NCBI GenBank assembly: GCA_030913385.1
Contig: CP133159.1
Coordinates: 640,584-704,583 of the forward strand
Direction of reading: 5' to 3'
Length of the DNA: 64,000 nt
Source of the DNA: Cytophagaceae bacterium ABcell3
GTDB lineage: Bacteria; Bacteroidota; Bacteroidia; Cytophagales; Cytophagaceae
The position numbers were made by a program, and so were the translations under genes. Shown here one piece after another: positions 1 to 61,155 of this stretch (position 1 is its first letter; every line of letters starts with the position of its first letter). The notes under the pieces are model-generated. The model did not search any database. It was given only the letters and a program-made list of their open reading frames with translations, and was not told the DNA's origin.

Positions 1-37
1 TTTTTCATCTTTATGGTGTGATGAGTTATATACAGTA

Positions 38-1642
38 TTGCATTTTACTTCTAAAGGGGCTTTAAATGCTGTTACTGATTATCATGTGCCTAATAATCAT
101 ATTTTTTTTTCCCTTATAAATAGCATAATTCCAGGATATGATTCCGTAGAGCCAGCTAGAGCTAGAATGTTTTCATTTATATCCCTATTAGCTTTTATTT
201 TTTTTGCATATAGCTATTTCTATAATTTGAAACAGTATTTATTAGCCCCTGTCTTTTTGTTCTTTTTATATTCCAATAGTTTGCTTCTAGATTTGGTATT
301 GCAGGCTAGGGGCTACGGGCTACTTTCTTTTTTTATTTTGGTGAGTTGTATTTGTGTTTATAAGTATTTTCGTGATGGGGGAAGGTTGAACTTACTGTTG
401 CTATGTATATCATGTGTATTGGCCGTTTATACCATTCCTACAAGTGTAGTTTTTTATTTCTTTCTGTGGGTTTTGCTGTTAACCTTTGCAGAAAAACGAA
501 AAGGAGTTTTCATATCTGCAGCCATTTCTGGTTTTGTTGTGGCTTTAGTACATATTCCTGTTTTGGGACAGCTGTTGGAAGTCTCATCTACTTATGCAGA
601 TGGCTGGGGAAGGCAGTTTGGAAGTTTGAGCGCTATTAAGGAAACTATTTTTAAGTTTTCATTTTTAAAAAGTTATCTAGATGTATTTATAGTTTTAGTT
701 TGCTGTGTTGTTGCAAGTTTTAGTAAATCTTCAACTTTTTCAAAGCCTGCACTAACTCTATTTTTTTCTGTTCTATTGTCTTTATTAGTTTTCAGGCTTC
801 TTGAGACACCCATACCACGTACGGTTGCTTTTGTTTTGATTGTACTTTTCTTTGTGGCTTTACACGCCATCAATAAATTATCATTATTTCCAAAACTTAG
901 ACTTTTTTCTTTACTTTTAATCTTTGCCTTTTCTTTCATCCATTCTATATACTCTATTAGAGCTTATCAGTATACTCCATATGAGAACTGGAAAGGAGTG
1001 GCCAGCTTTATTGAACAAAACGTCCCAGAGGGAACAGAAGTTTATTGCCCTTTCAGAAGCATTCTTCTTAAAGCTTATTTACCTGAAAGCTATCCTATAG
1101 TTACTGAGCCTAATGATAGCCTAATTTCTATTGGTAAGCAAACTGTAGTTGATGGAGACTTTTTAAGTAAAGATGGTTTAGGTGTTAATCTTTCTAATAG
1201 TTATCCAATTGCCGTACCTCAAATTAGGGGTGATAAACAGGTGATTTATCTTCCTGAAAACTATTTGAGCGAGCCTCTTAATAAGGTTAAGGTTGGAAGC
1301 ATTGATTCTATAAGAATTCTACAGAATCGTTATGAAGGTGTTTCCTATGATATTAGCTGTGATGGCAACTTTATTCTTCAATTCTATTCTAGCTCGGAGA
1401 CTTCTATAAAAGGTCATAAGCATGTGTTATTTTATGATGAAAAAGGTGAACTTCTTTTATACAAAAATATTGATAATTTTTTTAAGTATGTATTTTGGTC
1501 TGAACATCATTCTGAGCTAGATCCCTCTAAAGTTCATAAGGTTGTTTTCAGGGTCAAAGGAAGTGCCCCTTTAGAAGGGATGATAATAGTTGATTCTTGT
1601 TTCATTTATAAGGCGCCCAATCGCACAAGCAACGGTTTTTAG
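38..1642 (+). CDS. Polytopic membrane protein; candidate GT-C-type glycosyltransferase (ArnT/PMT-like)
   Basis: About 10 predicted TM helices in the first ~310 aa, then a ~220-aa soluble C-terminal domain. It sits in a glycosyltransferase locus. The ORF-track start is a TTG, and the frame stays open to position 2, so the gene may begin upstream of the window. Confidence 0.35.
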   Translation: MHFTSKGALNAVTDYHVPNNHIFFSLINSIIPGYDSVEPARARMFSFISLLAFIFFAYSYFYNLKQYLLAPVFLFFLYSNSLLLDLVLQARGYGLLSFFILVSCICVYKYFRDGGRLNLLLLCISCVLAVYTIPTSVVFYFFLWVLLLTFAEKRKGVFISAAISGFVVALVHIPVLGQLLEVSSTYADGWGRQFGSLSAIKETIFKFSFLKSYLDVFIVLVCCVVASFSKSSTFSKPALTLFFSVLLSLLVFRLLETPIPRTVAFVLIVLFFVALHAINKLSLFPKLRLFSLLLIFAFSFIHSIYSIRAYQYTPYENWKGVASFIEQNVPEGTEVYCPFRSILLKAYLPESYPIVTEPNDSLISIGKQTVVDGDFLSKDGLGVNLSNSYPIAVPQIRGDKQVIYLPENYLSEPLNKVKVGSIDSIRILQNRYEGVSYDISCDGNFILQFYSSSETSIKGHKHVLFYDEKGELLLYKNIDNFFKYVFWSEHHSELDPSKVHKVVFRVKGSAPLEGMIIVDSCFIYKAPNRTSNGF

Positions 1643-1662
1643 GAATAGAAAAGTTAGTATTA

Positions 1663-4131
1663 ATGGGCATGTTTCAACATTTACTCCACAAGTATCAACA
1701 CTCTCCGCTGCTTGAGAGGTTAAATCGGCATATTAATAAGTCATGTACTGCAGGAATGGGCAAGCAGTTAAGGTCTTTTCTCCCTAACTTCTTAAAGTCG
1801 GGGATTAAATTTACTGTTATTGTACTTTGGTTTATTCTTAAAAAAGTGACAATATATGTTAGCATTATTAATACTTACTTTTTTACTCTTGTAGCTTTCT
1901 GTATATGGTTTCATCGAATTCGGATGTTTAAACGAGAAATTAGGTCTTATCACTCTAGTGCTGGTGATTTGCAAACGGAACCTTTGAGAGTTAGTATCAT
2001 TGTTTCTTATGATCGTAACATTTTTAAAACAATACGAATTGTAAGGAATATTTTAAACAACACTATTTATCCAAACTATGAGGTGGTAGTAGTTGGGCAC
2101 ATATCTTCAATCTCTAAGAATGTATTGAATTTTTTTTTTACAAGTAGCAAGCTTTTGTTTGTTAAAGGAAAACATCTTTCTGAAGTAGAGGCAAAGAACC
2201 GTGCAGTTAATATGTCTACAGGCTTTTATCTTGTGTTTTGTGAACCATATGTCCAACCATTAAGAGGCTGGCTTATTAATTTAGTCATAGCTCATTCTAA
2301 AATTAATAAGCCTGGTGCTATAGGAGGTAAAACAGTATTTTCCTTTTTTCATCGTTTTGCTAATAGTTTTAAAGTTGAACAGGCCGGTATTGCCTATAGA
2401 CAAGAAGACGGTGCCATAAAGCCATATAAGCTATATGAAGGGGCTGATTATAGTTCAGCATGTGTTTGCGCGTCAGTTGAACGCCCAGCTGTCAATCATG
2501 GATTATTTTTAATTAGCAAGGAGGCTTTTCTAAAGGTCGGAGGTTTTAGTCATAAATACACTCCTTATTTAGCGAGTACAGATCTTTTTTTGAAACTTAT
2601 CAGTACTGGGTATGTAAATTATTATTGTGCTGACAGCGTTAGCCTTAGCTTTAATTTTAATAAAGAAAAGCATTTTGAACGTGGAGAGTTAATATCTTTC
2701 AAACGTGAATGGCAAGGTTTCTTAAAAGAAAAAGTAAATGCTGAAAGGTTTTCTTTTTTACCTGGCTTTTGGACACAGAAAAATTTAACTATTGGAGTTG
2801 TGGTTTCAGAAGAGGCTCCTTATGGATCTTTTAAAATGTTTCTTCAAACACTTTATGATAAAGGAGCAAATGTTAAATACTACAAGAGTGGTTCCGATTG
2901 GTATAATATTTCATATGAAGTTGATGTTCTTATTGTTACCGTTTCCGAATACGACCCAACTTTAATAATAGGGAATGTTTTTGTTTTAAAAATTTTTTGG
3001 GCCATCAGCAAAACAGAGCGTTTTGACATGTCGTATGGAGGGGCTTATGATCTTTTTATTTCTCCATGTTTATCTTCTTCAGCTTTTTCTAAGGTTAGAA
3101 GAAGCGTAGTGGAGTTTTCTTTAGAATATGATAAGTCATACAATATTGAAATCAATGAATTTTTTCACAAGAAAGTATATGCTTTTTTGGATATTATTCA
3201 ATCCTCCGAGAGATCTAAACGTGTTGCTGTTTTAATTGCGGCTCCAGACTTAGAGTTTGCTCATGAATGGGGTGATTACCACTTTGCCTTAGCTTTGAGA
3301 AAAAATATGGAAAGGGTAGGGAATGTTCAAGTACGCATCTATACCCGGGAAAAGTGGTACAGCCATGAGGTTCTTGATAATGATGTTGTGGTTGTTCTTC
3401 GAGGAATACATAAATATCATCCAGCTGCTACCCAAATTAATTTTATGTGGTTAATTTCTCATCCTGCAGATGTTTCTATGGAAGAGCTATACATGTATGA
3501 TCATATATTTGTTGCATCTGAATTGTTCGTACAAAAGTTTTCAGGAAGTCAGGGGTTGTCAATTAGCGTTCTTCATCAGTGTACAGACACTGAAGTCTTT
3601 TTTCCTGTTAAGGATGACAGGGTTAATGTTGAGGTATTGTATGTCGGAAACTCAAGAAACGTTCTTCGTGAAAGCCTGCGCTTACTTTTGCCTACGGATA
3701 AAGAACTACAGGTTTATGGTAGTCGTTGGGAAGGGTTAATACCTACTAGATATATAAAAGGGCGATATATTGATAATGATCAATTAAAGCATTATTATTC
3801 TAATGCAAGGGTGCTTCTTAACGACCATTGGTCTGATATGAAAGAAGAGGGCTTTATTTCTAATAGGGTTTTTGATGCCTTAGCTTGTAAGGCTAATTTA
3901 GTTTCAGACATCGTTTATGGAATGGATAAGCTTTTTGATAATAAGCTAATGGTCTATAGTTCAAGAAAAGAACTTTACAATTGGGTTGATAGATGTGTTG
4001 GTGGTGCTGATGAAATAGAGGAAAAAAGGGAGGCTTTGTATAAACAAGTAATTTCAGAACACACTTTCGAGCGCCGCGCTAAACAAATATTGGCCTATGT
4101 TGAAAAATTTCAAAAGTATGAAAGCAATTAA
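1663..4131 (+). CDS. Two-domain glycosyltransferase (degenerate GT2-like N-terminus, GT4/GT1-like C-terminus)
   Basis: A GT2-like motif VSIIVSYDRN...YEVVVVGH is present, but the DxD position reads FCEPY. The C-terminal EGFISNRVFDALACKANLVSD matches the GT4 EX7E-type motif. The true start is probably internal to the ORF. Confidence 0.5.
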   Translation: MGMFQHLLHKYQHSPLLERLNRHINKSCTAGMGKQLRSFLPNFLKSGIKFTVIVLWFILKKVTIYVSIINTYFFTLVAFCIWFHRIRMFKREIRSYHSSAGDLQTEPLRVSIIVSYDRNIFKTIRIVRNILNNTIYPNYEVVVVGHISSISKNVLNFFFTSSKLLFVKGKHLSEVEAKNRAVNMSTGFYLVFCEPYVQPLRGWLINLVIAHSKINKPGAIGGKTVFSFFHRFANSFKVEQAGIAYRQEDGAIKPYKLYEGADYSSACVCASVERPAVNHGLFLISKEAFLKVGGFSHKYTPYLASTDLFLKLISTGYVNYYCADSVSLSFNFNKEKHFERGELISFKREWQGFLKEKVNAERFSFLPGFWTQKNLTIGVVVSEEAPYGSFKMFLQTLYDKGANVKYYKSGSDWYNISYEVDVLIVTVSEYDPTLIIGNVFVLKIFWAISKTERFDMSYGGAYDLFISPCLSSSAFSKVRRSVVEFSLEYDKSYNIEINEFFHKKVYAFLDIIQSSERSKRVAVLIAAPDLEFAHEWGDYHFALALRKNMERVGNVQVRIYTREKWYSHEVLDNDVVVVLRGIHKYHPAATQINFMWLISHPADVSMEELYMYDHIFVASELFVQKFSGSQGLSISVLHQCTDTEVFFPVKDDRVNVEVLYVGNSRNVLRESLRLLLPTDKELQVYGSRWEGLIPTRYIKGRYIDNDQLKHYYSNARVLLNDHWSDMKEEGFISNRVFDALACKANLVSDIVYGMDKLFDNKLMVYSSRKELYNWVDRCVGGADEIEEKREALYKQVISEHTFERRAKQILAYVEKFQKYESN

Positions 4132-4921
4132 GTATCAAATAAAAAAGTGTCTATATTATTTTTCATTTTTGTTTCCGTGGACGTTAAATTATAAGCTTTT
4201 CCGTAATTCTCTAAAAGAGAATAGAGGAACGGACAGCGTTCTTTTTTTTTCTATTATTATACCTACATACAACCGTGCCAAGCTATTAAAAAAAGCAGTT
4301 GATTCTGTGCTTTCTCAAACTTATCCGCACTATGAAATATTAATAATTGACGATGGTAGCAATGACGGAACTCAAGATATGGTTTATAAGGTTTTTTCTG
4401 AAGATCTGTTAAACAAAAAAATTAGGTATGTAAATCACCCCCATAAGGGTGTAGGTTATGCTAGAAATAAAGGGTTAGAAATCGCTCAGGGTGATTTTAT
4501 TGCCTACCTTGACTCAGATAATATCTGGCATAAAAACTTTTTATCTATAATGTATAATGCACTAAAAACCGGTAGTGTGGATTGTGCTTATTGTGCAATG
4601 AGTGTCTTTAATGAGGTTGATAAAATGGTTTTTACATTATTTAACTCTCCGTTCAATAGGAAGAAGTTGCTAAAAACAAATTTCATTGACCTGAATTGTT
4701 TTGTTCATAAGCGTGAGTTATATCTAATAAAAGGAGGTTTTGATGAAACCCTTACTCGTTTGCTTGACTGGGATCTGATACTTAAATATACGTCAGGAAC
4801 AGGAGTTTTACCTGTTCCTGCGCTATTGGTCAGGTACAAAATCAGAAAATCAATACAACACATCACAACATCAAAACCTCTTGAAGAGAATGAAAAGAAG
4901 ATATTGTCTAAGTGGTCTTAA
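4097..4921 (+). CDS. Family 2 glycosyltransferase
   Basis: Classic GT2 signature FSIIIPTYNRAKLLKKAVDSVLSQTYPHYEILIIDDGSNDGT and a DSDN motif. The start may be the Met at 4118. Confidence 0.8.
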   Translation: MLKNFKSMKAIKYQIKKCLYYFSFLFPWTLNYKLFRNSLKENRGTDSVLFFSIIIPTYNRAKLLKKAVDSVLSQTYPHYEILIIDDGSNDGTQDMVYKVFSEDLLNKKIRYVNHPHKGVGYARNKGLEIAQGDFIAYLDSDNIWHKNFLSIMYNALKTGSVDCAYCAMSVFNEVDKMVFTLFNSPFNRKKLLKTNFIDLNCFVHKRELYLIKGGFDETLTRLLDWDLILKYTSGTGVLPVPALLVRYKIRKSIQHITTSKPLEENEKKILSKWS

Positions 4922-4932
4922 TGTTCTAAATC

Positions 4933-5687
4933 TTAAAACTTTCTAAAAACTGCCTGAAATTCATTGGTCATTGGTTGTGTATCAAACACCTCTTCCAGTT
5001 GGAGTGGTATATAATTCATTTCTGTTAACACACTTACCAATTCTTTAAATGAATCCATGGTGTAAACATGGCAGTGTACATCTGCATATTCTTCTTTTGA
5101 AAGTCTTTGTGCAACTTTTAGGGCTTCCTGAGGGGAAAATCGTTGCTGCTGTATTTTTTGCAGATGTTCGTTTCTCCAAACCATTTTTGCATCAACCGCT
5201 TTATGGTAAAAGAAGTGTTCAAGAATGTTATAGAAGCTCGGTTTTTTAACCTTGTTATTATAGTTGTATAAAAGGTCTATAAAAGTTGTATTTCTTCTTG
5301 TAATGTCAAAAGTATAGCGCTTGTCCGGTACGGACAGGAACAAAATTCCGTTAGTTTCAAGTATCTTTTCAATTTCCTGCAACCAACTTATAGTATCTGG
5401 TATGTGCTCAATGACATGATTTGCTATAACCACATCAAATTTTTCATTTATAACCTCTGAATATGCCGGCGTAGGGGAAATAAAATCAACTTTGACCAGC
5501 CTTTCAAGTGCATAACGTGGATTGTTCTTGCTCTTGGCAGAAAGGATTGTTTCAGAGGTATAATCCAAGTATTTAATATTAGCCTCAGATTTTAAATATG
5601 TCGGATTGTCTAAAGGGCCAATTTCTAGTAGACGTGCTTTTCTTATATCTGTTTTAGCCTCTATAATGTTTCTTTTATGCTTCCCAT
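4933..5687 (-). CDS. Class I SAM-dependent methyltransferase (start region disrupted)
   Basis: Motif DVVIANHVIEHIPD lies in the ORF at 4933..5568. The SAM-binding motif KARLLEIGPLDNP is encoded in frame upstream of the annotated TTG. No ATG/GTG/TTG start exists in that frame; an ATG at 5685-5687 is in the -1 frame across an AAAA run (5673-5676). Confidence 0.6.
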
Positions 5688-5695
5688 TTAATTAA

Positions 5696-8600
5696 TTAAA
5701 ATTTTTCTAAAAATGATAAATAATCTAAAACTGTTGTTTTTGTAGAATAGTTAGTGTTTACATCAAGATATGCATTATATCCAATTTCTTTTTTCTTTTC
5801 TATGTTTTTTTCAAGTTCTGCGATAATCGGTACAATCTCATCAATAGTGTTTACTAGAAAACCGTTTTGATTGTGACAAATCATTTCAGAATAAGCCACC
5901 GGATAAGGTGTAGTTATAAAAACTTTCTTCGCTATTCCGGCATTATAGTATTTTAAACCACTTTTCGCATTAATAAAATTATCTACATCTTCAGGTTTGA
6001 AGTTATATTGCTGAGCCAGAGATTTGATATAGGATACAGGATGATCTCCCCAGTTTATAACATAATCTGCTCCTTTAATGAAACCGAAAAGTTCATCTAA
6101 GTCAACACTGTCATAGATGTTAAGATTGTGATGTACTGGGAATTCATACTTTTCTGAAGAGAAGAAATGTATTTTAACTTTTTGCCCTTCCAGTTTCTCT
6201 GAAAGTTCGTTCATTGCTTCTAATCCGGCAGCGCCTATAGAAAAGCAGATGATATGAACGTATTCTGAGTTTAAGTCTTTTGGCTCTGCCCTTAAAAATC
6301 TGTCTGTGTCTATGCCATTTCTAAGGCAAACTGTATTTGGGTTAAACTTTAAGAGAAGCTTTTGTAAATGATTCGTTGAGGTGGTCACATAGTCACAGTT
6401 CTTAATGAATTTAAGAGGCATATCATTTTGACTATGAATAATGTAATCATCAATATCATAAATGAATGTTTTTTTGTTGCCGCCCTTTTTTTTCTTTTTT
6501 AAAACAGTTTTTAGAAAGCTCGGAGAGATTTTTTCATTTAAAGCTCCTATTCTTTGAAATACAAATATATCGTAATTGTCAAAATGAGTGTCTCTGATTT
6601 TATGCCACTTTTTGGCCTTTACCTTCACATAACGGCTAAGTTCTTTTATAATTTCAAAAGTTCTTTTTCGTGTTGAGCTTGAGTACTTGGCATTATACAC
6701 GAACAGAACTCTTTTGTTTGTAGTATTAACTAAGATTTTTTGGTTTTTATTTTTGAAATATAGCTCTTTGTTCTTTTCCCATAAAAGTTTGCTTTCTTCT
6801 GCATAAGAGTTAAAGGAACGGTGTCCATAATGATGCACATACGCATGTTTTACCCATACCGGCTTTGATCCAGAAAGTCTTATGCGGTCTATAAACTGAA
6901 CCTCCTCCCTTGACCCAAGTCCAAAACTCGTATCAAAAAAGCCTATTTCATTAATTAATTCACGTTTAAAGAATAAGCAAAATCCATTCAAGTACTCTGT
7001 TTCTTGATACTGTTCTTTTTCTCTTTCATAAAGATCTTTTCCGAAATCTTGAATTTGCTCGTAAGTCATATCAAACCTCTGTGTATGAACTTCATCTAGC
7101 TGTTGAACCACCCCATCAAAATTCTTGGCAATGCCATAAGAGGTAGACGGGCCGGTGATTACACAGTTTGCATTTTTACTGATTCCGTCCGCAAGAAATT
7201 TATTCCAGTTTTTGGTAACTATTGTATCCGAGTTGAGGAGGCATATGTAACGGCCACGTGAGTTGGTTATTATTAAGTTGCAATTGTAAGGAAATCCTTT
7301 CCTTTCAGTATTCCTCAGGTATTTCACATTATGATGATTCAACTCTAGCTCTTTTAAATAGCTTTTGGTTTCTTCGTCACTTACATCATCAATGAGGATA
7401 ACCTCATATTCTCCCGAGGTATTTTCCTGAATACTTTTGATACAGTCGCGGACATAGTCCACCTGATTGTGAATCGGGATTCCTATTGTTAATTCTACAT
7501 CAGTGGTGAAGTTGATCTCAGGGTTCTTTATGGAGAATCTTTTTAATAACTCTGTTTCAAGCTTTGTTATTGATTTTTCCCATGTAAAATCATTTATGTC
7601 TTTATATGCTTGATTGGCAATTTTTCTAGCAAGCGCAGGATCAGAGAGGATTTTTTTTACCGCTTCCGCAATAGAGGATGGATTTTTCTTTTCAACAAGT
7701 AAAGAGTTTTTATTTGTGCAGAAATCTCTGGATCCTCCAGTATCGGTTGTAATTAAAGGAGTCTTGCATAACATGGCTTCTACACTACACATACCTACAC
7801 CCTCGTACAAGCTAGCTGTTATCCATGCAGAACAGGAAGAGTATATTTCCCGCAACTCCGATTGGTCTGGGTTATAGTGATACTCTATGCCCTCAGGCAA
7901 CTCAGGGCTCTTTTCCTGGCCGAACATGACCATAGTTAGGTCTTTTATGTCTTTCTTTAGGATCTGAAAAGACTTTATTACATCTCTTGATCTTTTCCAT
8001 TCATCTTTATGATAAAGGGAGCCAATTCTGTTGCTGCGGTCTTGTGGGGTCTCAACAAACTGATCAGCGTGTATTCCGAAAGAAATCGTTTTAGCGTTTC
8101 TTCCGGTATGTTTGTGTATCTGCTCTGCTATCCAGGAGGTAGTGGCAAGAAGGTGAAAGTCTTTAATAGAAGCATTTTTGATATCCAAGTCTAAGTCGTG
8201 AACCCCGAAATGCATAAACAACAAAAATTTTAAACCTTTTGACTCGGGAAGTTTGCTGAAGATCTCTGCTGATTTATTATTGCCGTAAGTGATAAAAATA
8301 TCTGCATCAGGAAGCCTTTCTTCTAGGGAGTCTATAGAGCCAGGCCTTTCAAAATATAAGTCTATCACTGGAACAGAAAAATTGAACCAGTCTGATTTGC
8401 TACCTGAATACTGACGAATAAAGTTTACTACATGTCCTTTCTCTTGCAGTAACTTAGCAATCATCATTAGCCTTTTTGTGCCTCCGTGAATATTTGTAGA
8501 AGGGGTTAGTATACTTATTATAAGCTTTCCTTGTTTAGGCCTTGGTCGTTCGGATAATTTACTTTTTTTCCATATGTTATATTTCTGTATAGTGTTTTCA

Positions 8601-9673
8601 AAGTTTTCAATCCCTACATTTCCTTGGTTGTTTTTCAGTAAAAGATTTTTGTATGCATTAATGAACTTATTGCCGAGTTTCCACCTGTAGGATCTTAGGA
8701 TTTCCTGCTGTGCTTTTTGAAGGTCTTCTATCCAATGTGAAAGTTTTTCCAGCTCTGCTTCGGCTTTTTCTTTCTCAAATTTGATCTTGCTATTGGCTTC
8801 TGAAAATTTAGAGTTTTCAGCATTCTTTTTGTCTGCTAGGCTTTTAAGATCAATAAATTCCTTGTATATACCTTCTGTATTTTTTAATGTTAAGGCAGAT
8901 TTTAAAGAAACATTTTTATTAATTTTTTGAAGGAACTTGTTTTTCAAGTTTTGATATATCTCTTTGATCTCACCTGTCAGATATATTTGCTCTAATTGGC
9001 TGTTGTCACTTAAGTCAGAATCAAGAGTTATAGCCATCTCTTTAGGATTCCTGCTTTTAAATGTAAATCCGTGGGCGCTCAAGAATAAAATTATCTGCTC
9101 ATAAATTAATTCTGGTTCTTTTGTAAGACTATTGTAATCAACGAGTAAGTAAGGTTGGTTATCTATTTGTGTGACGCCGGATTTTACATACTTTTCCCAT
9201 AAAGCAAGTGAGAAATCTAAAGAAAACCTATTTTTTTCCCTCAGTAATTGAGCAACTTCTATTGGGTTCCTATATACAAAAATGTAAGCAGTAAAACTAA
9301 GGTACTTTTCCCAAACTTTTCCAGTTAAACAAAACCTTGGATCGCTCAGGTAAAAATCTGTATGGGTTTCGCTGTAAGTTTTCTTAACAAGGTTTTTAAT
9401 ATAGCCCTTTGTTTTTTCTGATATTTCAGAATCAAATTTTTCTGGACTGTAATTAGAAATCGAAAACCAGTTGCAGTTTATCTCTTCAAGAATGAGATCA
9501 TTAATTTTTCCTATATCATCTCTCTTCTCAAAACTATTTAAAGTATTGTCATTTGATTCTGATATTTGATTCTTTAAGCTAGGATGGATCCCTAGTTTTT
9601 CTAATACAGTTGAAATTGCTAAAGTTCCTGAACGGTGCATGCCAAGAACAATTACCGTTTTTTTATCACTCAT
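5696..9673 (-). CDS. 1325-aa multidomain protein: N-terminal PAPS-type sulfotransferase, then coiled coil, GT4-like, GT2 and a C-terminal GT-like domain
   Basis: VIVLGMHRSGT P-loop-like 5'-PSB motif at the N-terminus. GT4 motif EGVGMCSVEAMLCKTPLITTDTGGSRDF. GT2 motif LTIGIPIHNQVDYV...YEVILIDDVSDEET. Confidence 0.7.
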   Translation of the reverse strand: MSDKKTVIVLGMHRSGTLAISTVLEKLGIHPSLKNQISESNDNTLNSFEKRDDIGKINDLILEEINCNWFSISNYSPEKFDSEISEKTKGYIKNLVKKTYSETHTDFYLSDPRFCLTGKVWEKYLSFTAYIFVYRNPIEVAQLLREKNRFSLDFSLALWEKYVKSGVTQIDNQPYLLVDYNSLTKEPELIYEQIILFLSAHGFTFKSRNPKEMAITLDSDLSDNSQLEQIYLTGEIKEIYQNLKNKFLQKINKNVSLKSALTLKNTEGIYKEFIDLKSLADKKNAENSKFSEANSKIKFEKEKAEAELEKLSHWIEDLQKAQQEILRSYRWKLGNKFINAYKNLLLKNNQGNVGIENFENTIQKYNIWKKSKLSERPRPKQGKLIISILTPSTNIHGGTKRLMMIAKLLQEKGHVVNFIRQYSGSKSDWFNFSVPVIDLYFERPGSIDSLEERLPDADIFITYGNNKSAEIFSKLPESKGLKFLLFMHFGVHDLDLDIKNASIKDFHLLATTSWIAEQIHKHTGRNAKTISFGIHADQFVETPQDRSNRIGSLYHKDEWKRSRDVIKSFQILKKDIKDLTMVMFGQEKSPELPEGIEYHYNPDQSELREIYSSCSAWITASLYEGVGMCSVEAMLCKTPLITTDTGGSRDFCTNKNSLLVEKKNPSSIAEAVKKILSDPALARKIANQAYKDINDFTWEKSITKLETELLKRFSIKNPEINFTTDVELTIGIPIHNQVDYVRDCIKSIQENTSGEYEVILIDDVSDEETKSYLKELELNHHNVKYLRNTERKGFPYNCNLIITNSRGRYICLLNSDTIVTKNWNKFLADGISKNANCVITGPSTSYGIAKNFDGVVQQLDEVHTQRFDMTYEQIQDFGKDLYEREKEQYQETEYLNGFCLFFKRELINEIGFFDTSFGLGSREEVQFIDRIRLSGSKPVWVKHAYVHHYGHRSFNSYAEESKLLWEKNKELYFKNKNQKILVNTTNKRVLFVYNAKYSSSTRKRTFEIIKELSRYVKVKAKKWHKIRDTHFDNYDIFVFQRIGALNEKISPSFLKTVLKKKKKGGNKKTFIYDIDDYIIHSQNDMPLKFIKNCDYVTTSTNHLQKLLLKFNPNTVCLRNGIDTDRFLRAEPKDLNSEYVHIICFSIGAAGLEAMNELSEKLEGQKVKIHFFSSEKYEFPVHHNLNIYDSVDLDELFGFIKGADYVINWGDHPVSYIKSLAQQYNFKPEDVDNFINAKSGLKYYNAGIAKKVFITTPYPVAYSEMICHNQNGFLVNTIDEIVPIIAELEKNIEKKKEIGYNAYLDVNTNYSTKTTVLDYLSFLEKF

Positions 9674-9918
9674 GAATTGCTATTTTCTAATATGGGCTGT
9701 CAAAACCTCTTACCATTATATACTTTTCGATGGAAGTATTGACAAATGACTGCAAAATACAAAAAACAAAATTAAAAAATTGAAAGAGCTGTGCGGTTTT
9801 TCTGATGATAGTGTTCAGAAATATATTTTGTTAAAAGTTTTTTGAGCATTTAGGTTGAGGATTATAAAGTTTTCAGAAGATGTTGGGGGTATAAAAATAA
9901 GTCGTAGACAATATCATA

Positions 9919-9960
9919 TTAGGTAATTTGCTGACTATTGGTATGGAATATTACTTTGCT
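9919..9960 (+). repeat. Direct repeat copy 1 (TTAGGTAATTTGCTGACTATTGGTAT...)
   Basis: About 42 bp, roughly 80% identical to 11579..11620. Together the two copies bracket the cassette containing the GT2 fragment and the sulfotransferase. Confidence 0.6.
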
Positions 9961-10219
9961 TTTTCTCTTTTGTCCCAGCTCCTAAAAGGTGCTAGAACGT
10001 TTACATTGGATTTATTCCGACTAACTAGTGGTAATATTGGATCGCCTTGGTTTAGGTTCTAGAAAGATCGTGGTCTCTGAAGATCGTGGGAGAAAATGGC
10101 TAAGCGAGCTTGAGAGAGAGAACAGATTAATTATGTGCATATTGTGCTATAAAGGGTTACAATAAATGGGAATGGTATTACCATGTTCAATACAAGCTCT
10201 GACTGGATAAGTTATTATA

Positions 10220-10455
10220 AAATTTTTTTTGGATTTAAATCCATTTGTGCATTTAAAAGAGATTCGTGAAAAAAAGGTGGCTTTGATGAAACTTTAAAGC
10301 GTTTGGTTGAATGGGATTTAATTTTAATATTTACGTGTAAAATGATCCTATGTCTGTTCCCGCAGTACTAGTTAGTTACTACCTTAAAAAGGATATAGCC
10401 CATATAACCACAGCTGGATACTTAAACGAGAATTTACGGAAAGACTATTGGAAAA
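10220..10455 (+). pseudogene. GT2 glycosyltransferase 3' fragment (paralog of the 4097..4921 C-terminus), frameshifted
   Basis: KKGGFDETLKRLVEWDLIL and, in a second frame, SVPAVLVSYYLKKDIAHITT...KDYWKNG align with KGGFDETLTRLLDWDLIL...PVPALLVRYKIRKSIQHITT...KILSKWS of the intact gene. The fragment ends overlapping the sulfotransferase start. Confidence 0.6.
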
Positions 10456-11568
10456 ATGGGTAGAATAATAGATAGACTTATGAAAAACATTATTGTACTT
10501 GGTATGCACCGTTCAGGCACCTCTATGGTTACAGGTTTGCTATCTAAACTAGGATATTATGTTGGGGCTCCTGAAGAATTAACTAATACGAGCGAGGAAA
10601 ATCCTAAGGGTTTTTTTGAAAGAAAAGATGTAAGAAATATCAACGACGAATTATTGATAGGTAATGATTTTGACTGGTATAAAGTTGCGGGCTTTACAAC
10701 GGACTCTTTGACTGATTCTTCTGTTCATAAATATAAAGAAGAAATTTCAGGTGTTTTTAACCTTCTTAGAAAAAAGGGGCCTTTTGCAATAAAAGAGCCA
10801 CGGCTATGTCTGTTATATCTAATTTTTAAAGAAATGGTTAGGGATGATATAAAGCTATTGGTCTATCGGGATCCAATAGAGTCAGCAGAATCTTTGCTTA
10901 AGAGGAATAAGTTCCCTTTGCATTTTGGCCTTGCTTTGTGGGAGAAGTACCATAAAGCTTTATTTAACTCCCTCTCTAACGACCATTTGATTCTAGTAAA
11001 CTATAATAAATTGCTTAATGACCCAAAGGCCGAGGTTCAAAATTTGGTCAACAGTATTAATAGTTTGTCAGGGGATGACATTGCGCTTGAACAGGGTGCG
11101 CTAGATTTTATCTGCCCTGAATTGTACAGGAGCAATAAATACAAGAAATATGGTGTAGGTTATTTGACTGATAGTCAAAAGTATATATGGAATCAGTTGA
11201 AAAACTTCGATCAAAGCAAAACTTTGCGTTCACCTGAAAACCCTCTGATGGAAGTCGTTCTCGAGACTCATCAAGAATTGATGGAGGAGTATCTTCAACA
11301 GAAAGCAATTATAAATAGTCAGCGTAAGGATCTTAAAGAATCAAAAGAAGCGTTTGCAAAATTTAGGAAATCACATAGGTTAGAAGTGAAGTTTCTGCTG
11401 GATTCAATAAGAATCTTCCATGGCCGACATTTAAGTTATAAACGTTCATTAATCTTTAGAATCAAAGACATGATCAGAAAAGGACACCTTAAATACATAG
11501 ATGATAGGTATGAAGACGTATTTAGCAAATTTCCAGAGGTTACTGGTGAAAGAAAAGTTAACCAGTAG
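10456..11568 (+). CDS. Sulfotransferase family protein
   Basis: IIVLGMHRSGTS plus YRDPIESAESL and LALWEKY. It is paralogous to the N-terminal domain of the 1325-aa protein. Confidence 0.7.
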   Translation: MGRIIDRLMKNIIVLGMHRSGTSMVTGLLSKLGYYVGAPEELTNTSEENPKGFFERKDVRNINDELLIGNDFDWYKVAGFTTDSLTDSSVHKYKEEISGVFNLLRKKGPFAIKEPRLCLLYLIFKEMVRDDIKLLVYRDPIESAESLLKRNKFPLHFGLALWEKYHKALFNSLSNDHLILVNYNKLLNDPKAEVQNLVNSINSLSGDDIALEQGALDFICPELYRSNKYKKYGVGYLTDSQKYIWNQLKNFDQSKTLRSPENPLMEVVLETHQELMEEYLQQKAIINSQRKDLKESKEAFAKFRKSHRLEVKFLLDSIRIFHGRHLSYKRSLIFRIKDMIRKGHLKYIDDRYEDVFSKFPEVTGERKVNQ

Positions 11569-11620
11569 GCGATTCAATTTAGGTAATTTGCTGCCTACTG
11601 GTATAAAAATATTTTTTACT
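11562..11620. terminator. Hairpin between convergent genes; also direct repeat copy 2
   Basis: CCAGTAGGC...GCCTACTGG forms a 9-bp stem, followed by A/T runs. The stop codon of 10456..11568 lies inside the left arm. Confidence 0.5.
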
Positions 11621-12599
11621 TCTTCCCCTTCTTCCCTGCCAAAAAAGCCACACCTGCGGCGGTGGCTAGCACGGCGGTTCCTGCAAGGGCCAAGTTTTTG
11701 ACAGGTGTTCTCATACCTCTGGTATTTTCATATCCTCCACTGACTGATTTAAAGTTAGGATTGGGCTCGTAAAGGTTGCCTTTTGAGGGTTCTGAGGACT
11801 CTTGGCTAAAGTGCTTCTTATAAACGCCTTTTCTGTATAGTTTTGCAAAAGTCTCTGGCGCAAATGCTTTGACAATGCCGTTCATTACACCCATGCCTCC
11901 TATGATTACTTCGGGTTGCGGTTTTTCTGCTAATTTTACAATGGTTTCAGCTACTTCTTTGGCTTCTAACACCGGGTTCATAGGTTTTACCTCACGCCCC
12001 ATATAGTTGCTTAGCTGTCTGAACAGTGGTGTGTCGATGGTTGCTGGCAGTACAGAGCAAACATGGATGTTTTTTTCGTCAGACAGTTCATGCTGTAGAG
12101 CCAAGCTCATACCGCGAATGCCTGCTTTGCTGGTGGTATAAGCAAATGAATAAGCTTGCCCCGTCATCCCTACGATGGAGGATAGGTTGATAAGCACGCC
12201 ATGTCCTTGCTCTCTGAAGTATTTTATTACGGCTTTTGCTCCATAAATGTATCCAAATAGGTTTACTTTAATGACCCTCTCAATATCTTCTATTGGAGAG
12301 TCGTCAAACTTCCCCATCATGGCTACGGCAGCATTGTTTACCCATACATCAATTCTTCCATAGGTTTCATATGCTTTTCGGGCCAGGTCTTTCACTTGGT
12401 CTTGGTTTGATACGTCTAAAGCATATACCATGGCTTCGCCACCAGCTTCTTTGCATTCTTGGGCCAGCTCGTCCAGAGCTTCTTTTTTTCTTGCAGCTAA
12501 AATTACGGTTTGGCCTTGTTTAGCAAATTCCAGAGCCGTTGCACGTCCTATTCCGCTTGACGCTCCTGTAATTACAATTACTTTTTCCTTTCCTTTCAT
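11616..12599 (-). CDS. SDR family oxidoreductase with C-terminal hydrophobic anchor
   Basis: VIVITGASSGIGRAT Rossmann motif, the YTTSKAG catalytic YxxxK, and a C-terminal LALAGTAVLATAAGVAFLAGKKGKK tail. Confidence 0.85.
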   Translation of the reverse strand: MKGKEKVIVITGASSGIGRATALEFAKQGQTVILAARKKEALDELAQECKEAGGEAMVYALDVSNQDQVKDLARKAYETYGRIDVWVNNAAVAMMGKFDDSPIEDIERVIKVNLFGYIYGAKAVIKYFREQGHGVLINLSSIVGMTGQAYSFAYTTSKAGIRGMSLALQHELSDEKNIHVCSVLPATIDTPLFRQLSNYMGREVKPMNPVLEAKEVAETIVKLAEKPQPEVIIGGMGVMNGIVKAFAPETFAKLYRKGVYKKHFSQESSEPSKGNLYEPNPNFKSVSGGYENTRGMRTPVKNLALAGTAVLATAAGVAFLAGKKGKK

Positions 12600-15126: not shown

Positions 15127-16104
15127 TTACCACCCTAAAATATGGGCAAACATTAATGGCGCTACTATGGTCGCGTCGCTTTCCACTATAAACTTAGGGG
15201 TATTAATATCAAGTTTTCCCCAAGTAATTTTTTCATTAGGCACAGCACCTGAATAAGAGCCATAGGAAGTGGTAGAGTCAGAAATTTGACAGAAGTAGCT
15301 CCAAAATGGGACGTCATGCCACTCGAGATCCTGATACATCATCGGCACAACACAAATCGGAAAATCTCCGGCTATACCACCACCAATTTGGAAGAAACCA
15401 ACCCCTTTGCCTCCTGAGTTTTCTTTGTACCATTGGGTAAGGTATGTCATGTATTCGATGCCACTTTTCATCGTAGAGGGCTTAAGTTCCCCTTTTATGC
15501 AGTATGATGCAAAAATATTCCCCATGGTGCTATCTTCCCACCCTGGAACTATGATTGGAAGGTTTTTCTCCGCTGCAGCCAACATCCAGCTGTCTTTCGT
15601 GTCTATTTCATAGTGCTCTTTCATTGCACCAGAAAGCAGCAGTTTATACATATATTCATGTGGTAAATACCGCTCGCCTTTTTCTTCTGCCTCTTTCCAA
15701 ATTTTAAAAATATGCTTTTGAATCCTTCTGAAGGCTTCTTCTTCGGGAATGCAGGTGTCGGTAACCCTATTATAGCCATTTTCCAATAACTCCCATTCCT
15801 CTTGAGGGCTAAGGTCTCTATAATGTGGTACGCGCTTATAGTGTGTGTGCGCCACCAGGTTCATGATATCTTCCTCAAGGTTTGCCCCGGTACAGGAAAT
15901 AATTGATACCTTGTCCTGGCGAATCATTTCGGCAAGGGAAAGCCCGAGCTCTGCGGTGCTCATAGCTCCGGCAAGGGTAATCATCATTTTGCCACCTTCG
16001 TTCAGGTGTGTTACATAGCCTTTGGCGGCATCCATCATTGCGGCAGCATTGAAATGGCGGTAGTGGTGCGCCATAAATTGGGAAATGGGTCCTTGTGTTG
16101 TCAT
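15127..16104 (-). CDS. Deoxyhypusine synthase-like protein
   Basis: LAGAMSTAELGL...SCTGANLEEDI and a C-terminal ITWGKLDINTPKFIVESDATIVAPLMFAHIL match the DHS family. Confidence 0.75.
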   Translation of the reverse strand: MTTQGPISQFMAHHYRHFNAAAMMDAAKGYVTHLNEGGKMMITLAGAMSTAELGLSLAEMIRQDKVSIISCTGANLEEDIMNLVAHTHYKRVPHYRDLSPQEEWELLENGYNRVTDTCIPEEEAFRRIQKHIFKIWKEAEEKGERYLPHEYMYKLLLSGAMKEHYEIDTKDSWMLAAAEKNLPIIVPGWEDSTMGNIFASYCIKGELKPSTMKSGIEYMTYLTQWYKENSGGKGVGFFQIGGGIAGDFPICVVPMMYQDLEWHDVPFWSYFCQISDSTTSYGSYSGAVPNEKITWGKLDINTPKFIVESDATIVAPLMFAHILGW

Positions 16105-16414
16105 CTTTTTTAATTTTTATGCTTTTTTAACTGAATTTGGCCTTTTGCTTAAAACTTTCACAAATTTTACTATTTAACTGAATTTTGTAACAAAAAATTA
16201 AAAAATTATTCTAGCATTAATTTCTAAACCTGGAATATGCACGAGAATTTGCTATTGCCCCTATTGACGAAATCTATTGCTTTAATTATCTGCAAAAACA
16301 CATGAGTTAGGTTAGCAGTTCACAAGATTAGAATGATCAGAGTGCTTTCTTAAATCAAACATAGTCATTGGTGGCAGGTTATTTTTTAATGAGAAACCAG
16401 ATGATCGACAGACT

Positions 16415-16792
16415 ATGGAATATATAATGGGAAAAACGCATTGGGCAATTGCAGAAGGGCTTATTCCTGATGAAAGTACAGGGCCGGAGCCAGAAATGGA
16501 AAGTCATGAGACGGCTTGCATCTTAAATACCAGTGACCAAGATGCACATGTAGAAATCATGATATACTTTAAAGGTAAAGACCCTGTAGGGCCATATAAA
16601 TATACGGTCCCGGCAAAAAGGGTTGAGCATATTCGTTTTAACAACTTAAATGATCCGGAGCCAATTCCTCGGGGCGAAGATTATGCAAGCACTATTATTT
16701 CAGATGTTCCAATAGTTGTGCAGCACTCCCGGTTAGATTCACGCCAATCTGAAAATGCATTGATGACAACCATGGCTTATGCCGCTACTTAA
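16415..16792 (+). CDS. Sensory rhodopsin transducer-like protein (ASRT family)
   Basis: 125 aa. WAIAEG, GPEP, SHETxCILN, VGPY and VPIVVQHSRLDSRQSENAL match my recollection of ASRT/TM1070-type proteins. Confidence 0.6.
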   Translation: MEYIMGKTHWAIAEGLIPDESTGPEPEMESHETACILNTSDQDAHVEIMIYFKGKDPVGPYKYTVPAKRVEHIRFNNLNDPEPIPRGEDYASTIISDVPIVVQHSRLDSRQSENALMTTMAYAAT

Positions 16793-16855
16793 ATTCGGTT
16801 GGGCAAGACTAATTAAAGTTAATTTAATTCATGGGTTGCATGTAAAATAGGTTTT

Positions 16856-18511: not shown

Positions 18512-18514
18512 ACA

Positions 18515-43828: not shown

Positions 43829-44108
43829 AACCGGGGGTAACGCTATGGGGGGTGCTATTCTGGGTTGGGGTTTTCTGTAGGTTAGAATTGGGAACTAATG
43901 CAGCTTTTTGCAAAGTATAACAAGTCAGAACAGGGTCTATGGTTGGCTTAAAAGGATAAGGAGGCAGTTCTCACTCCTGTTCTAACATTGGTAATTAGGA
44001 TTTGAATAGGCTAACGCTTAAGATTGTATAACAAGAGCCGTATGATGGGAGACTATCAAGTACGGTTCTGTGAGAGGCTTGGGGTGAAATTCCCCTTGCC
44101 TACTCGAC
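43829..44108 (+). mobile_element. Group II intron remnant (domains V and VI intact, ORF-less; 5' boundary uncertain)
   Basis: Domain V GAGCCGTATGATGGGAGACTATCAAGTACGGTTC (44035-44068) matches the group II DV consensus GAGCCGUAUG...ACGUACGGUUC. DVI AGGCTTGGGGTGAAATTCCCCTTGCCT-A-CTC carries a bulged A 6 nt before an ...AC 3' end at 44108. Confidence 0.6.
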
Positions 44109-61099: not shown

Positions 61100-61155
61100 A
61101 CTTCGTTTCCTTAAACGATTACAAAAAAAAAAATTAAAGTCGCTTAAATAACACA

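Follow-up and report, generated by a model that had tools for sequence, protein, structure and literature searches.

The region studied here is best explained as the right-hand end of a surface-glycan biosynthesis locus with low GC in Cytophagaceae bacterium ABcell3, in which the core enzyme would be a 1325-aa fusion of a sulfotransferase, a helical linker and three glycosyltransferase (GT) modules. This sulfotransferase–helix–GT architecture recurs in an uncharacterised protein family. The neighbouring ‘cassette’, i.e. a GT2 gene remnant and a free-standing sulfotransferase gene between direct repeats, is neither mobile nor a recent duplicate, but most simply an ordinary rearrangement scar. 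As a combined explanation, core enzyme plus neighbouring scar has our preference with modest confidence.

The window, i.e. the whole 64-kb stretch of DNA analysed (features in table 1), could be traced to ABcell3 because the fusion protein and the free-standing sulfotransferase are both 100% identical to proteins of this strain, whose habitat is a soda lake. GC content is 34.2% over positions 1–11568 versus 39.9% in the remaining window, and the step coincides exactly with the sulfotransferase/SDR junction. With two sulfotransferases in a glycan locus, the preliminary description of the region as sulfotransferase-rich was borne out.

Table 1. Features of the locus, in window coordinates.
Feature	Position	Strand	Evidence or remark
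Polytopic membrane protein gene, 3' part	2..1642	+	runs off window start; frame open to base 2
822-aa protein	1663..4131	+	N-terminal membrane segment, GT2-like region, C-terminal Glyco_trans_1_2
GT2 glycosyltransferase, intact, paralogue of pseudogene	4097..4921	+	Pfam Glycos_transf_2, 127 bits
SAM-dependent methyltransferase gene	4933..5691	-	Pfam Methyltransf_23/11/12
Fusion, second GT-B-fold module (residues 976–1325)	5699..6748	-	seen only by structure
Fusion, GT2 (GT-A) module (residues 726–962)	6788..7498	-	Pfam Glycos_transf_2
Fusion, GT4 (GT-B) module (residues 386–707)	7553..8518	-	Pfam Glycos_transf_1, Glyco_trans_1_4
Fusion, helical linker (residues 251–385)	8519..8923	-	helices 257–327, 329–349, 356–373 (AF2)
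Fusion, sulfotransferase domain (residues 1–250)	8924..9673	-	AF2 model, Foldseek, motifs
-7 promoter consensus TAnnTTTG (Bacteroidetes-type)	9767..9774	-	sole match in 782-nt divergent spacer
R1, decayed copy of sulfotransferase gene end/SDR gene end junction	9862..9988	+	core 9919–9944
GT2 remnant, ~75 codons in three frames	10220..10442	+	tblastn, family HMM
Free-standing sulfotransferase gene, intact (RCC89_02750, NCBI)	10456..11568	+	Pfam Sulfotransfer_3
R2, original junction	11522..11648	+	core 11579–11604

The fusion is encoded by an ORF on the minus strand (5696–9673), the 1325-aa product of which starts with MSDKKTVIVLGMHRSGT and consists of five parts: a PAPS-type sulfotransferase, a helical linker (~90 residues), a GT4, a GT2 and a second GT-B module. 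The sulfotransferase–GT4–GT2–GT order proposed from the sequence was thus confirmed, for GT4 and GT2 by Pfam and for the second GT-B module by structure. The claim of a PAPS-type sulfotransferase domain was upheld by structural evidence but not by Pfam, where it stays under the cut-off (18 versus 27 bits). In the AF2 model, mean pLDDT is 84.7 over residues 1–400 and exceeds 90 across most of the sulfotransferase domain, with which a Foldseek search of the PDB returned PAPS sulfotransferases for all of the top 32 matches (32/32, best E=2e-6). The domain also has the invariant 5'-PSB loop (GMHRSGT) and R135-x7-S143, both of which align to mycobacterial STF9. The linker is modelled with pLDDT >90 up to residue 340 and contains a conserved SxRWKxG segment at residue 328; a crude coiled-coil test gave a weak heptad-like pattern of about 40 residues (~290–331), a signal absent by the same test in P0006, the closest full-length relative. 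In the GT4 module, Pfam matches at residues 543–705 (Glycos_transf_1, 95 bits; Glyco_trans_1_4, 74.5 bits) are accompanied by an EX7E motif, E624...E632, with both residues invariant in the family alignment, as are D762 and D763 of the GT2 module (Glycos_transf_2 at 729–958, 81 bits), whose best PDB sequence match is the GT2 domain of chondroitin synthase (E=5.7e-10). The second GT-B module has no confident Pfam family and lacks EX7E, and may therefore be non-catalytic.

Described at first as an unusual all-in-one architecture, this arrangement turned out to be shared: about ten proteins (P0002–P0011), 39–53% identical to the fusion, have the same modules in the same order, and there are dozens of more distant sulfotransferase–GT fusions. 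The homologous loci belong to Cytophagales, Bacteroidia, Saprospiraceae and Chthoniobacterales metagenome genomes. Among homologues, the linker ranges from 117 to 382 aa, being longer with inserted domains, and 367 to 1236 residues separate the PSB loop from the beginning of GT4; in one locus (L011), one ORF encodes the sulfotransferase and helix and another the GT modules. Genes for both Wzm and Wzt lie within 10 kb in three of the nine homologous loci (L001, L003 and L013), no ABC transporter was found within this distance in the other six, and no Wzm/Wzt genes occur anywhere within the 64-kb window. Chthoniobacterales loci have PMT_2 GT-C genes and methyltransferases in place of the transporter. 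The Wzt proteins of the three loci (244–256 aa) consist of the ABC_tran domain alone, i.e. the cap-recognising carbohydrate-binding module of classical terminator systems is absent. Additional sulfotransferases are found in relatives as well, as a small sulfotransferase-like gene in L003 and L013 and as a second sulfotransferase–GT fusion in L010.

Several neighbours are common to the window and these relatives. The methyltransferase of L003 is 54% identical to the extended window ORF over residues 16–251 of the latter; the intact GT2 (274 aa here, 267 aa according to NCBI; 100% identical to P0239) matches, at 47% identity, a GT2 that L001 encodes divergently from its fusion gene; and the 822-aa protein, with Glyco_trans_1_2 at residues 678–811 (E=1.3e-19), shares 40% identity over 302 aa with a 943-aa protein that follows Wzm–Wzt in L003 and 33% with a 324-aa protein of L001. 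The product at the left edge of the window, a hydrophobic polytopic protein whose C-terminal part is soluble and which carries a ...WCDELY... motif, is possibly a periplasmic glycosyltransferase of the GT-C type (ArnT/PMT-like), an assignment that we infer since Pfam gave no match; in L010 and L014, PMT_2 GT-C genes adjoin the homologues of the fusion gene.

In a published model, a polymerase is combined with a terminator and a coiled-coil ruler, and the helical linker is described as a hallmark of terminator systems (PMC11231755). WbbB of Klebsiella pneumoniae O12/Raoultella terrigena and O7 ORF6 are single-polypeptide polymerase-terminators in ABC-transporter-dependent O-antigen assembly (PMC11231755). 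The fusion resembles these in layout only, i.e. in an N-terminal chain-modifying enzyme, a long helical spacer and then at least two C-terminal GT modules, in further GT modules on separate proteins, in a spacer length that varies between homologues and, for three relatives, in a gene position beside wzm/wzt; no sequence similarity to WbbB, WbdD or WbdA was found. In contrast to these proteins, the distal enzyme is a sulfotransferase rather than a Kdo transferase or methyltransferase-kinase, there are three GT modules and the coiled coil is putative, the Wzt of the relatives has no carbohydrate-binding module and this window has no transporter. In E. coli O9a, a terminator with a coiled-coil ruler (WbdD) is separate from the polymerase (WbdA) (PMC11231755, PMC3482155), comparable to the split ORFs of L011 and to the free-standing 370-aa protein of the window, which consists of a sulfotransferase and a C-terminal extension without a GT module. 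Moreover, the basic amphipathic SxRWKxG segment follows the fusion's helix where WbdD has its membrane-binding helix. Yet sulfate would here take the place of methyl phosphate, there is no homology, and the extension of the free-standing enzyme shows no significant heptad signal.

Sulfotransfer_3-type enzymes, i.e. mycobacterial STF9 (2z6v) and STF1 (2zq5) and the sulfotransferase domains of olefin synthase (4gox) and CurM (4gbm), have the fold, the 5'-phosphosulfate loop (GMHRSGT versus GMPRTGT) and the R-x7-S 3'-phosphate motif in common with the fused domain, whereas sequence identity is 12–16%, their substrates are trehalose glycolipids or polyketide intermediates and they are not fused to GTs. 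Also comparable is the O-antigen cluster of Aeromonas salmonicida, an ABC-2-transporter locus with a sulfotransferase-domain protein, a multi-domain WbbB-like GT and an ArnT-like GT-C protein; there, however, the sulfotransferase stands alone as a 216-aa protein without a known role, the O antigen has no known sulfate and Wzt is of the long form (438 aa) (PMC4483657).

On this basis, the three GT modules of the fusion would extend a lipid-linked glycan at the cytoplasmic face of the membrane, and the sulfotransferase, kept ~10 nm away by the helix, would sulfate that glycan, which might then be exported by a Wzm/Wzt ABC transporter as suggested by the three homologous loci. Sulfate would more likely be added at the growing (non-reducing) end or close to it, with sulfation along the chain nearly as likely. 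The latter leads to a credible, if less probable, alternative, in which there is no ruler: the fused and free-standing sulfotransferases would add sulfate to residues within each repeat unit, and the helix would merely tether or oligomerise the enzyme and play no part in chain-length control. The product would then be a sulfated polysaccharide resembling those that marine bacteria and cyanobacteria produce as capsules or exopolysaccharides. Such loci with separate sulfotransferases have precedent, as reportedly in the sulfated capsule loci of Vibrio and Cobetia, where several PAPS-type sulfotransferases are said to occur alongside GTs. To our knowledge, the sulfotransferases of these loci and of the Synechocystis locus are free-standing and the pathways are of the Wzx/Wzy type. 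For Synechocystis xss/synechan, the accessible text of PMC12267927 likewise cites a glycan locus with several PAPS-type sulfotransferases and GTs, and it describes no fused sulfotransferase–helix–GT protein. In-chain decoration would also fit the Wzt proteins without a carbohydrate-binding module, the weak heptad signal of short-linker members and the usual presence of at least two sulfotransferases per locus (the window, L003, L013 and L010), which suits multiple sulfation sites. It does not account, however, for the constant position of the sulfotransferase at the distal end of a helical linker whose length varies greatly, since a decorating enzyme has no obvious use for a spacer of 100–380 residues.

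Unlikely, by comparison, is a short sulfated oligosaccharide on lipid or on proteins (e.g. targets of general Bacteroidota O-glycosylation, gliding or S-layer proteins), transferred or extended in the periplasm by a GT-C membrane enzyme. The visible locus does begin with a GT-C-like membrane protein, PMT_2 genes lie beside two relatives of the fusion gene, six of the nine loci showed no ABC transporter, and ABcell3 glides and degrades cellulose (PMC11700989). Against this, the membrane protein of the window lacks Pfam support as a GT-C enzyme, and six GT modules, a protein with a helical spacer and the Wzm/Wzt linkage in Bacteroidota relatives better fit the assembly of a polymer.

Turning to the ‘cassette’, the second sulfotransferase gene is indeed divergent from the fusion gene and intact, with a likely true start at the second ATG (10480). 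Its product carries the same VLGMHRSGT loop, retains all family-invariant residues and, at 28.5 bits, lies just above the Sulfotransfer_3 cut-off of 27. Its supposed origin as a recent copy, in contrast, does not hold, because it shares only 29–33% identity with the fused domain; the sulfotransferase domains of foreign fusions (34–39%) and database proteins (up to 43%) are nearer, with best homologues other than the identical P0119 (100%) at 34–43%. Being intact beside a heavily decayed neighbour, it is probably still under selection. This neighbour, correctly recognised as a frameshifted 3' fragment related to the intact GT2 gene, is a true pseudogene: 10226–10442 matches residues 196–268 of the intact GT2 (tblastn E=2e-12; 62% over 65 codons, other family members ≤49%), with a possible weaker extension back to 10134, the family HMM covers only positions 189–263 of 290, and it found no trace of the catalytic N-terminal two-thirds in 9640–10225. 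Only the GT2 part of the presumed duplicate has a paralogue in the window.

Direct repeats of ~42 bp had been described as bracketing this unit. What stands is a 26-nt core (24/26 identical; 0/100 dinucleotide shuffles of the window gave two matches), whereas the 42 nt are only ~76% identical (manual count) and the repeat really extends over ~120–127 nt, with ~70% identity outside the core and significant flanks (p ~0.001 on each side in anchored flank tests; ungapped tblastx E=3.6e-6). R2 comprises the last 57 nt of the sulfotransferase gene, the spacer between the two genes and the last ~33 nt of the SDR gene together with ~11 nt of spacer ahead of these, and its right flank is authentic SDR coding sequence, as the alignment with the family model PRK06139 reaches SDR residue 320 of 327. 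Since the repeat thus consists of coding 3' ends of two genes, R2 is native and R1 the copy. A recombination site or mobile-element end was considered and rejected: the R1...R2 unit contains no recombinase and no inverted ends, and no further copies of the repeat, which is thus far from ubiquitous, were found in the window, the GTDB representative genomes or JGI metagenomes. Nor is a terminator hairpin in R2 supported, as it folds no better than shuffled sequence (z=-0.18) and a terminator scan found nothing at 11579–11620.

The GT2 gene, which would once have stood ahead of the free-standing sulfotransferase gene in an operon, has lost its catalytic 5' two-thirds. R1, a since-decayed ~125-nt patch copied from the sulfotransferase/SDR junction 1.66 kb downstream and now located in the DNA that precedes the GT2 remnant, would most simply be the scar of one local deletion or repair event with templated insertion. 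The core, however, is far better conserved than its flanks, unlike the prediction for a plain neutral scar. That a partial operon of GT2 fragment and sulfotransferase was instead segmentally duplicated and captured by recombination between pre-existing repeats is quite improbable: integration of a circular intermediate with one repeat copy does yield flanking direct repeats such as those seen here, and the intact GT2 is the nearest match to the fragment, but the gene 3' of that GT2 is the methyltransferase on the other strand, so that the window holds no source operon, and this idea also conflicts with the divergence of the two sulfotransferases, with R1 being the copy of a native R2, with the limited identity outside the core and with the lack of a recombinase and of other repeat copies.

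The single promoter consensus in the divergent spacer points toward the fusion gene and serves as a lead only, as chance alone predicts about one match (shuffle mean 1.1); by pattern count, none in this spacer faces the free-standing sulfotransferase gene. The methyltransferase gene has a 1-nt frameshift at its 5' end and no in-frame start, with the ATG at 5687 in another frame, and is possibly a pseudogene; together with the missing consensus toward the sulfotransferase gene, this suggests that part of the locus may be decaying.

The preliminary description read the 1325-aa fusion protein, for which the NCBI annotation is ‘glycosyltransferase’, as a sulfotransferase joined to three glycosyltransferase (GT) modules, and made this reading hinge on a sulfotransferase fold of the region around VLGMHRSGT. 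Structural evidence now supports both the fold and the reading. An AlphaFold (AF2) model, which covers the fused domain only (residues 1-400), has a pLDDT of 84.7 overall and >90 across the sulfotransferase domain, and the top 32 Foldseek matches in the PDB are all PAPS sulfotransferases (probability 0.97-1.00, best E=2e-6), including the olefin synthase sulfotransferase domain, TPST1/2, SULTs, STF9 and the CurM sulfotransferase, at TM-scores of only 0.35-0.5. In Pfam, the fused domain stays sub-threshold for three sulfotransferase families (E 0.004-0.06); against the Sulfotransfer_1/3 gathering cut-off of 27 bits it scores 18, whereas the free 370-aa protein encoded nearby (NCBI annotation ‘hypothetical protein RCC89_02750’) passes with 28.5 bits. 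Precomputed PF13469 matches are present on most homologous fusions, and the fused domain aligns to the free protein with 29% identity (E=5e-31). With the 5'-phosphosulfate-binding loop taken as P-loop-like, i.e. xxRxGT[ST], GMHRSGT is invariant across 39 family sequences, both window proteins included, as are P112-R113, R135, P137, W159 and Y162, with S143 nearly invariant. The 3'-phosphate-binding motif is defined by an Arg and a Ser eight residues apart. In a profile alignment the GMHRSGT loop falls on GMPRTGT of the mycobacterial sulfotransferase STF9 (2z6v), and yRnPlevAkSL, with its R-x7-S motif, on HRDPYKATGSL of the same structure. By loop and motif, the fused N-terminal domain and the free 370-aa protein are thus PAPS-type sulfotransferases of predicted activity.

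The module order, which is the same in homologues, is sulfotransferase (residues 1-250), helix (257-349), GT4, GT2 and GT-B, with helices at 257-327, 329-349 and 356-373 following the sulfotransferase domain in the AF2 model. The GT4 module (residues 386-707) reaches 95.3 bits in Pfam Glycos_transf_1 against a cut-off of 26.4 (match at 543-691), and every sequence in the family alignment keeps its EX7E glutamates, E624 and E632; the GT2 module (residues 726-962) reaches 81.4 bits in Glycos_transf_2 against 23.3 (match at 729-909), with D762 and D763 invariant and LLNSDT conserved. In residues 976-1325 the EX7E motif is missing, a conserved KSGLKYYNA stretch standing at its position, and Glycos_transf_1 remains below cut-off (17.4 bits versus 26.4, E=0.0034); this module is therefore classed by fold only, as a GT4-like module of modelled GT-B fold. 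A home-made heptad score, a crude test set beside a model of the monomer only, exceeds the 95th percentile at about residues 290-331 of the fusion protein, and does so in 17-38% of linker windows in the homologous fusions P0002, P0003 and P0005 and in 0% in P0006. E, K, Q, R and L make up a fraction of 0.46-0.54 of the family's linkers, compared with 0.31-0.33 elsewhere, and P and G are scarce there. After the long helix, six of eight family members carry a conserved S-x-R-W-K/R-x-G segment (residues 328-334 here, window positions ~8681-8692). Being basic and amphipathic, this segment may serve in membrane association; SYKRSLIFRIK in the free sulfotransferase resembles it loosely. An SMI1/KNR4 match at residues 323-375 (E ~1e-3, below cut-off) lies inside the helix and was treated as spurious.

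Initially regarded as an unusual all-in-one architecture, this module order in fact recurs in about ten proteins of 39-53% identity, one of which (P0006, 1313 aa) spans 99% of the query. The sulfotransferase-GT fusion is therefore no one-off but a recurrent, uncharacterised family. More broadly, about half of 118 matches join PF13469 with GT domains. Among GTDB representative genomes, relatives are found in metagenome genomes of Cytophagales, Bacteroidia and Saprospiraceae and in three such genomes of Chthoniobacterales, and the distance from the sulfotransferase loop to the GT4 start varies (367, 382, 534, 627 and 632 residues, and up to ~1236 with inserted extra domains). At one locus (L011, 5657-10040) a sulfotransferase-helix ORF of 423 aa and a GT4-GT2-GT-B ORF of 1045 aa (P0008) overlap by 26 nt; either the two parts are naturally split here, or a frameshift separates them in this low-coverage metagenome genome. 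A phmmer search with the whole fusion protein against PDB sequences returned generic GT2 and GT4 matches only and no closely related solved structure.

The neighbourhoods of these genes are partly shared with the window (see table). Wzm/Wzt transporter genes (ABC2_membrane plus ABC_tran) adjoin the fusion gene in L001 (a Cytophagales genome), L003 and L013, i.e. in three of nine homologous loci, and were not found within 10 kb of it in L007, L009-L012 and L014; nor did tblastn with the L001 and L003 proteins detect a homologue in the 64-kb window. The three Wzt proteins, of 244, 255 and 256 aa, consist of the ABC_tran domain only and lack a C-terminal carbohydrate-binding module. A small second sulfotransferase-like gene is also present in L003 and L013. 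The Chthoniobacterales loci L010 and L014 contain a PMT_2 GT-C gene, methyltransferase genes and GT2 genes, with no transporter within 10 kb. L010 has two sulfotransferase-GT fusions in one locus: a different sulfotransferase-GT2-GT4 fusion of 1130 aa (16023-19415) lies two genes downstream of a 2240-aa fusion.

What might such a protein do? Kelly et al. (PMC11231755) describe WbbB and Klebsiella O7 ORF6 as combinations of a modifying enzyme, a long helix and GT modules. In O7 ORF6 a coiled coil joins a methyltransferase-kinase to two GT2 modules; in both proteins the helix serves as a molecular ruler, and a coiled coil is named as one characteristic marker of the strategy (PMC11231755). As in WbbB, WbdD and O7 ORF6, which have GT modules or a polymerase docking site opposite the chain-modifying enzyme, the putative modifying enzyme of the fusion protein lies at the distal end of a helical spacer and its GT modules at the other, and this match with the layout of WbbB and O7 ORF6 led us to propose helix-held sulfation: the three GT modules, together with a separate GT2 and the 822-aa protein, would build a lipid-linked glycan, which the sulfotransferase would sulfate from the far end of the helix. 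The polymerase-terminator design is the best functional analogy, albeit with a new chemistry and with several marks of membership lacking. Unlike a true homologue, the protein shows no sequence homology to WbbB, WbdD or WbdA, and the Wzt of its relatives, unlike that of terminator systems, is without a cap-reading carbohydrate-binding module. Membership of that class and chain termination are not asserted because of this short Wzt, the three-in-nine transporter linkage, the absence of homology and the putative nature of the coiled coil. Our literature search found no paper that ties a sulfotransferase to a molecular ruler; in an Aeromonas O-antigen locus, from which no sulfate is known, WbbB occurs together with an ArnT-like gene and a protein with a sulfotransferase domain (PMC4483657).

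A strong rival to sulfation at the terminus is sulfation along the glycan chain. The most far-reaching version of helix-held sulfation, which we consider possible but rather unlikely, is that sulfate is a new chain-terminating cap: a PAPS sulfotransferase at the tip of a helical ruler would sulfate the non-reducing end at a set length and so stop polymerization; export would proceed without the Wzt carbohydrate-binding module used by all characterized terminator systems; and the free 370-aa sulfotransferase would act as another terminator, in the style of WbdD, or as a modifier. The family concerned occurs in Bacteroidota and Verrucomicrobiota. If the sulfotransferase module does act on the growing end, sulfate would join the short list of terminating and measuring chemistries (methyl, methyl phosphate, Kdo), and the polymerase-terminator design would exist outside Proteobacteria and without a cap-reading transporter. 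Even with in-chain sulfate, the family would make a sulfated glycan by a compact route within one polypeptide, of possible interest for heparin-like or fucoidan-like materials, and it marks uncultured Bacteroidota and Chthoniobacterales that are likely to make sulfated surface polymers.

Features of the glycan locus and counterparts of genes adjoining fusion-gene homologues
Feature	Position	Strand	Description
Fusion ORF	5696-9673	minus	1325 aa, as in the preliminary description
Free sulfotransferase ORF	10456-11568	plus	370 aa, as in the preliminary description
GT2 fragment	10226-10442	plus	three frames; corresponds to residues 196-268 of the 4097-4921 GT2, E=2e-12
Repeat core	9919-9944 / 11579-11604		24/26 identical; two copies in 64 kb
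Counterpart of relatives' Glyco_trans_1_2 protein			822-aa protein, 33-40% identity
Counterpart of relatives' GT2	4097-4921		47% identity
Counterpart of relatives' methyltransferase	4933-5691	minus	54% identity

The free sulfotransferase gene and the GT2 remnant before it had been taken for a segmentally duplicated cassette. The free sulfotransferase is intact and keeps all family-invariant residues; it is 29-33% identical to the fused domain, 34-39% to the sulfotransferase domains of foreign fusions and 34-43% to database proteins, and since foreign sulfotransferases are at least as close to it as the fused domain is, it is an old paralogue and no recent copy. Its nearest homologues, at L005 and L006, have no GT2 upstream and lie among unrelated neighbours (Mur-ligase/AMP-binding, DUF218). 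The frameshifted 3' fragment homologous to the C-terminus of the 4097-4921 product was recovered by tblastn as described, and it is a pseudogene. It matches only positions 189-263 of 290 of the GT2 family HMM, which even at maximum sensitivity picks up nothing of the catalytic half in 9640-10225 and does not confirm a weak extension (CAYCAI) at 10134. A comparison of 65 codons gives the remnant 62% identity to the window GT2, 49% to P0240 and 46% to the GT2 of L001, which fits a duplicate that arose long ago within the lineage. The position of the remnant here is taken in L001 by an intact GT2 gene, divergent from the fusion gene. The remnant ends ~10 nt before the sulfotransferase start, from which we infer that both genes once formed one operon; it has at least two frameshifts in ~220 nt next to an open sulfotransferase ORF, which suggests that the free sulfotransferase is still under selection.

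The direct repeats reported around this unit are real, but the evidence does not support them as the bounds of a recombination event. No window shuffle out of 100 that preserved dinucleotides contained two core matches, the anchored alignments of the flanks have p ~0.001 on each side, and the similarity extends beyond the 26-nt core as an ungapped 120-nt tblastx match (E=3.6e-6); the core is 92% identical (24/26) and the flanks 61-70%. The right copy (11522-11648) is made up of the final 57 nt of the sulfotransferase gene, stop codon included, a spacer and the SDR gene's 3' end. As the alignment of the SDR family model reaches residue 320 of 327, this copy is native and the left one (9862-9988) is a copy of the gene-end junction. 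Beyond this ~120-nt junction copy, tblastn and tblastx detected nothing in 9674-10140 that remains of a further sulfotransferase or SDR gene, and the ~230 nt between the left copy and the GT2 remnant match nothing by tblastx within the window. The simplest account of the left copy and of the GT2 loss is one local deletion or repair event, which would have destroyed the 5' part of the GT2 gene and left behind a patch for which sequence 1.66 kb downstream served as template. A mobile cassette (integron cassette, transposon or integrative element) is not supported: 9674-11620 contains no recombinase or transposase and no ORFs other than the free sulfotransferase gene and the GT2 remnant, the repeat search gave no inverted ends, the repeats being direct and made of gene 3' ends, the only Rfam matches, to a tRNA and to a fragment of a group II intron, lie far from the repeat, and further copies are found neither elsewhere in the window nor in GTDB representative genomes or JGI metagenomes. 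The terminator hairpin proposed for 11579-11620 was likewise abandoned: both copies fold on both strands as shuffles do (z=-0.18 for the right copy), and a terminator scan was empty. The cassette thus reduces to a pseudogene and a junction-copy scar, and serves as a caution that direct repeats flanking a gene may stem from the copying of a gene-end junction and need not mark a recombination site.

Parts of the glycan locus may be decaying, as the methyltransferase gene downstream of the fusion gene is frameshifted too. No start codon lies in its frame; the ATG at 5687 begins another one (MGSIKETL*), and the L003 methyltransferase aligns from residue 16, which together imply a 1-nt frameshift near the A-run at ~5670-5678. 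The frameshift is probably real because the genome is Illumina-based. The host, ABcell3, is a haloalkaliphilic, aerobic, gliding cellulose degrader from Siberian soda lakes that represents a new genus of Cytophagales, with a genome assembled from Illumina reads (PMC11700989). Both the 1325-aa and the 370-aa protein match ABcell3 proteins at 100% identity.

Bases 1-11568 have a GC content of 34.2% versus 39.9% in the remainder of the window, with the step exactly between the end of the free sulfotransferase gene (35.4%) and the SDR gene (44.6%), and the genes past 11.6 kb are unrelated housekeeping genes (SDR, Nramp transporter, amylase, IMPDH and others); the genes discussed here therefore form the right-hand end of a low-GC glycan locus. 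The window starts inside a gene for a polytopic membrane protein, GT-C-like in appearance and without a Pfam match. Promoter scans were at chance level, both for sigma-70, a model inappropriate for Bacteroidota, and for TAnnTTTG.

Elsewhere in the window, a deoxyhypusine-synthase-family gene (15127-16104 minus) and an Anabaena-sensory-rhodopsin-transducer-family gene (16415-16792, 184 bits) are found. A 697-aa ORF without a Pfam match (30954-33047) precedes the gene for a 1638-aa protein (33500-38416) with DUF3686 (‘ATPase involved in DNA repair’, 616 bits), DUF7902 and a C-terminal AAA domain. An IS66-family transposase is encoded at 40500-41954 minus (DDE_Tnp_IS66 300 bits, with zf-IS66 and LZ domains). 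The Rfam match to group II intron domain V/VI (44033-44108, 66.5 bits) has no adjoining reverse-transcriptase ORF and is followed by an ORF for a DUF1016/YhcG PDDEXK nuclease (44222-45271), and a type I restriction-modification system occupies 58706-62802 (hsdR 58706-61099, hsdM 61156-62802).
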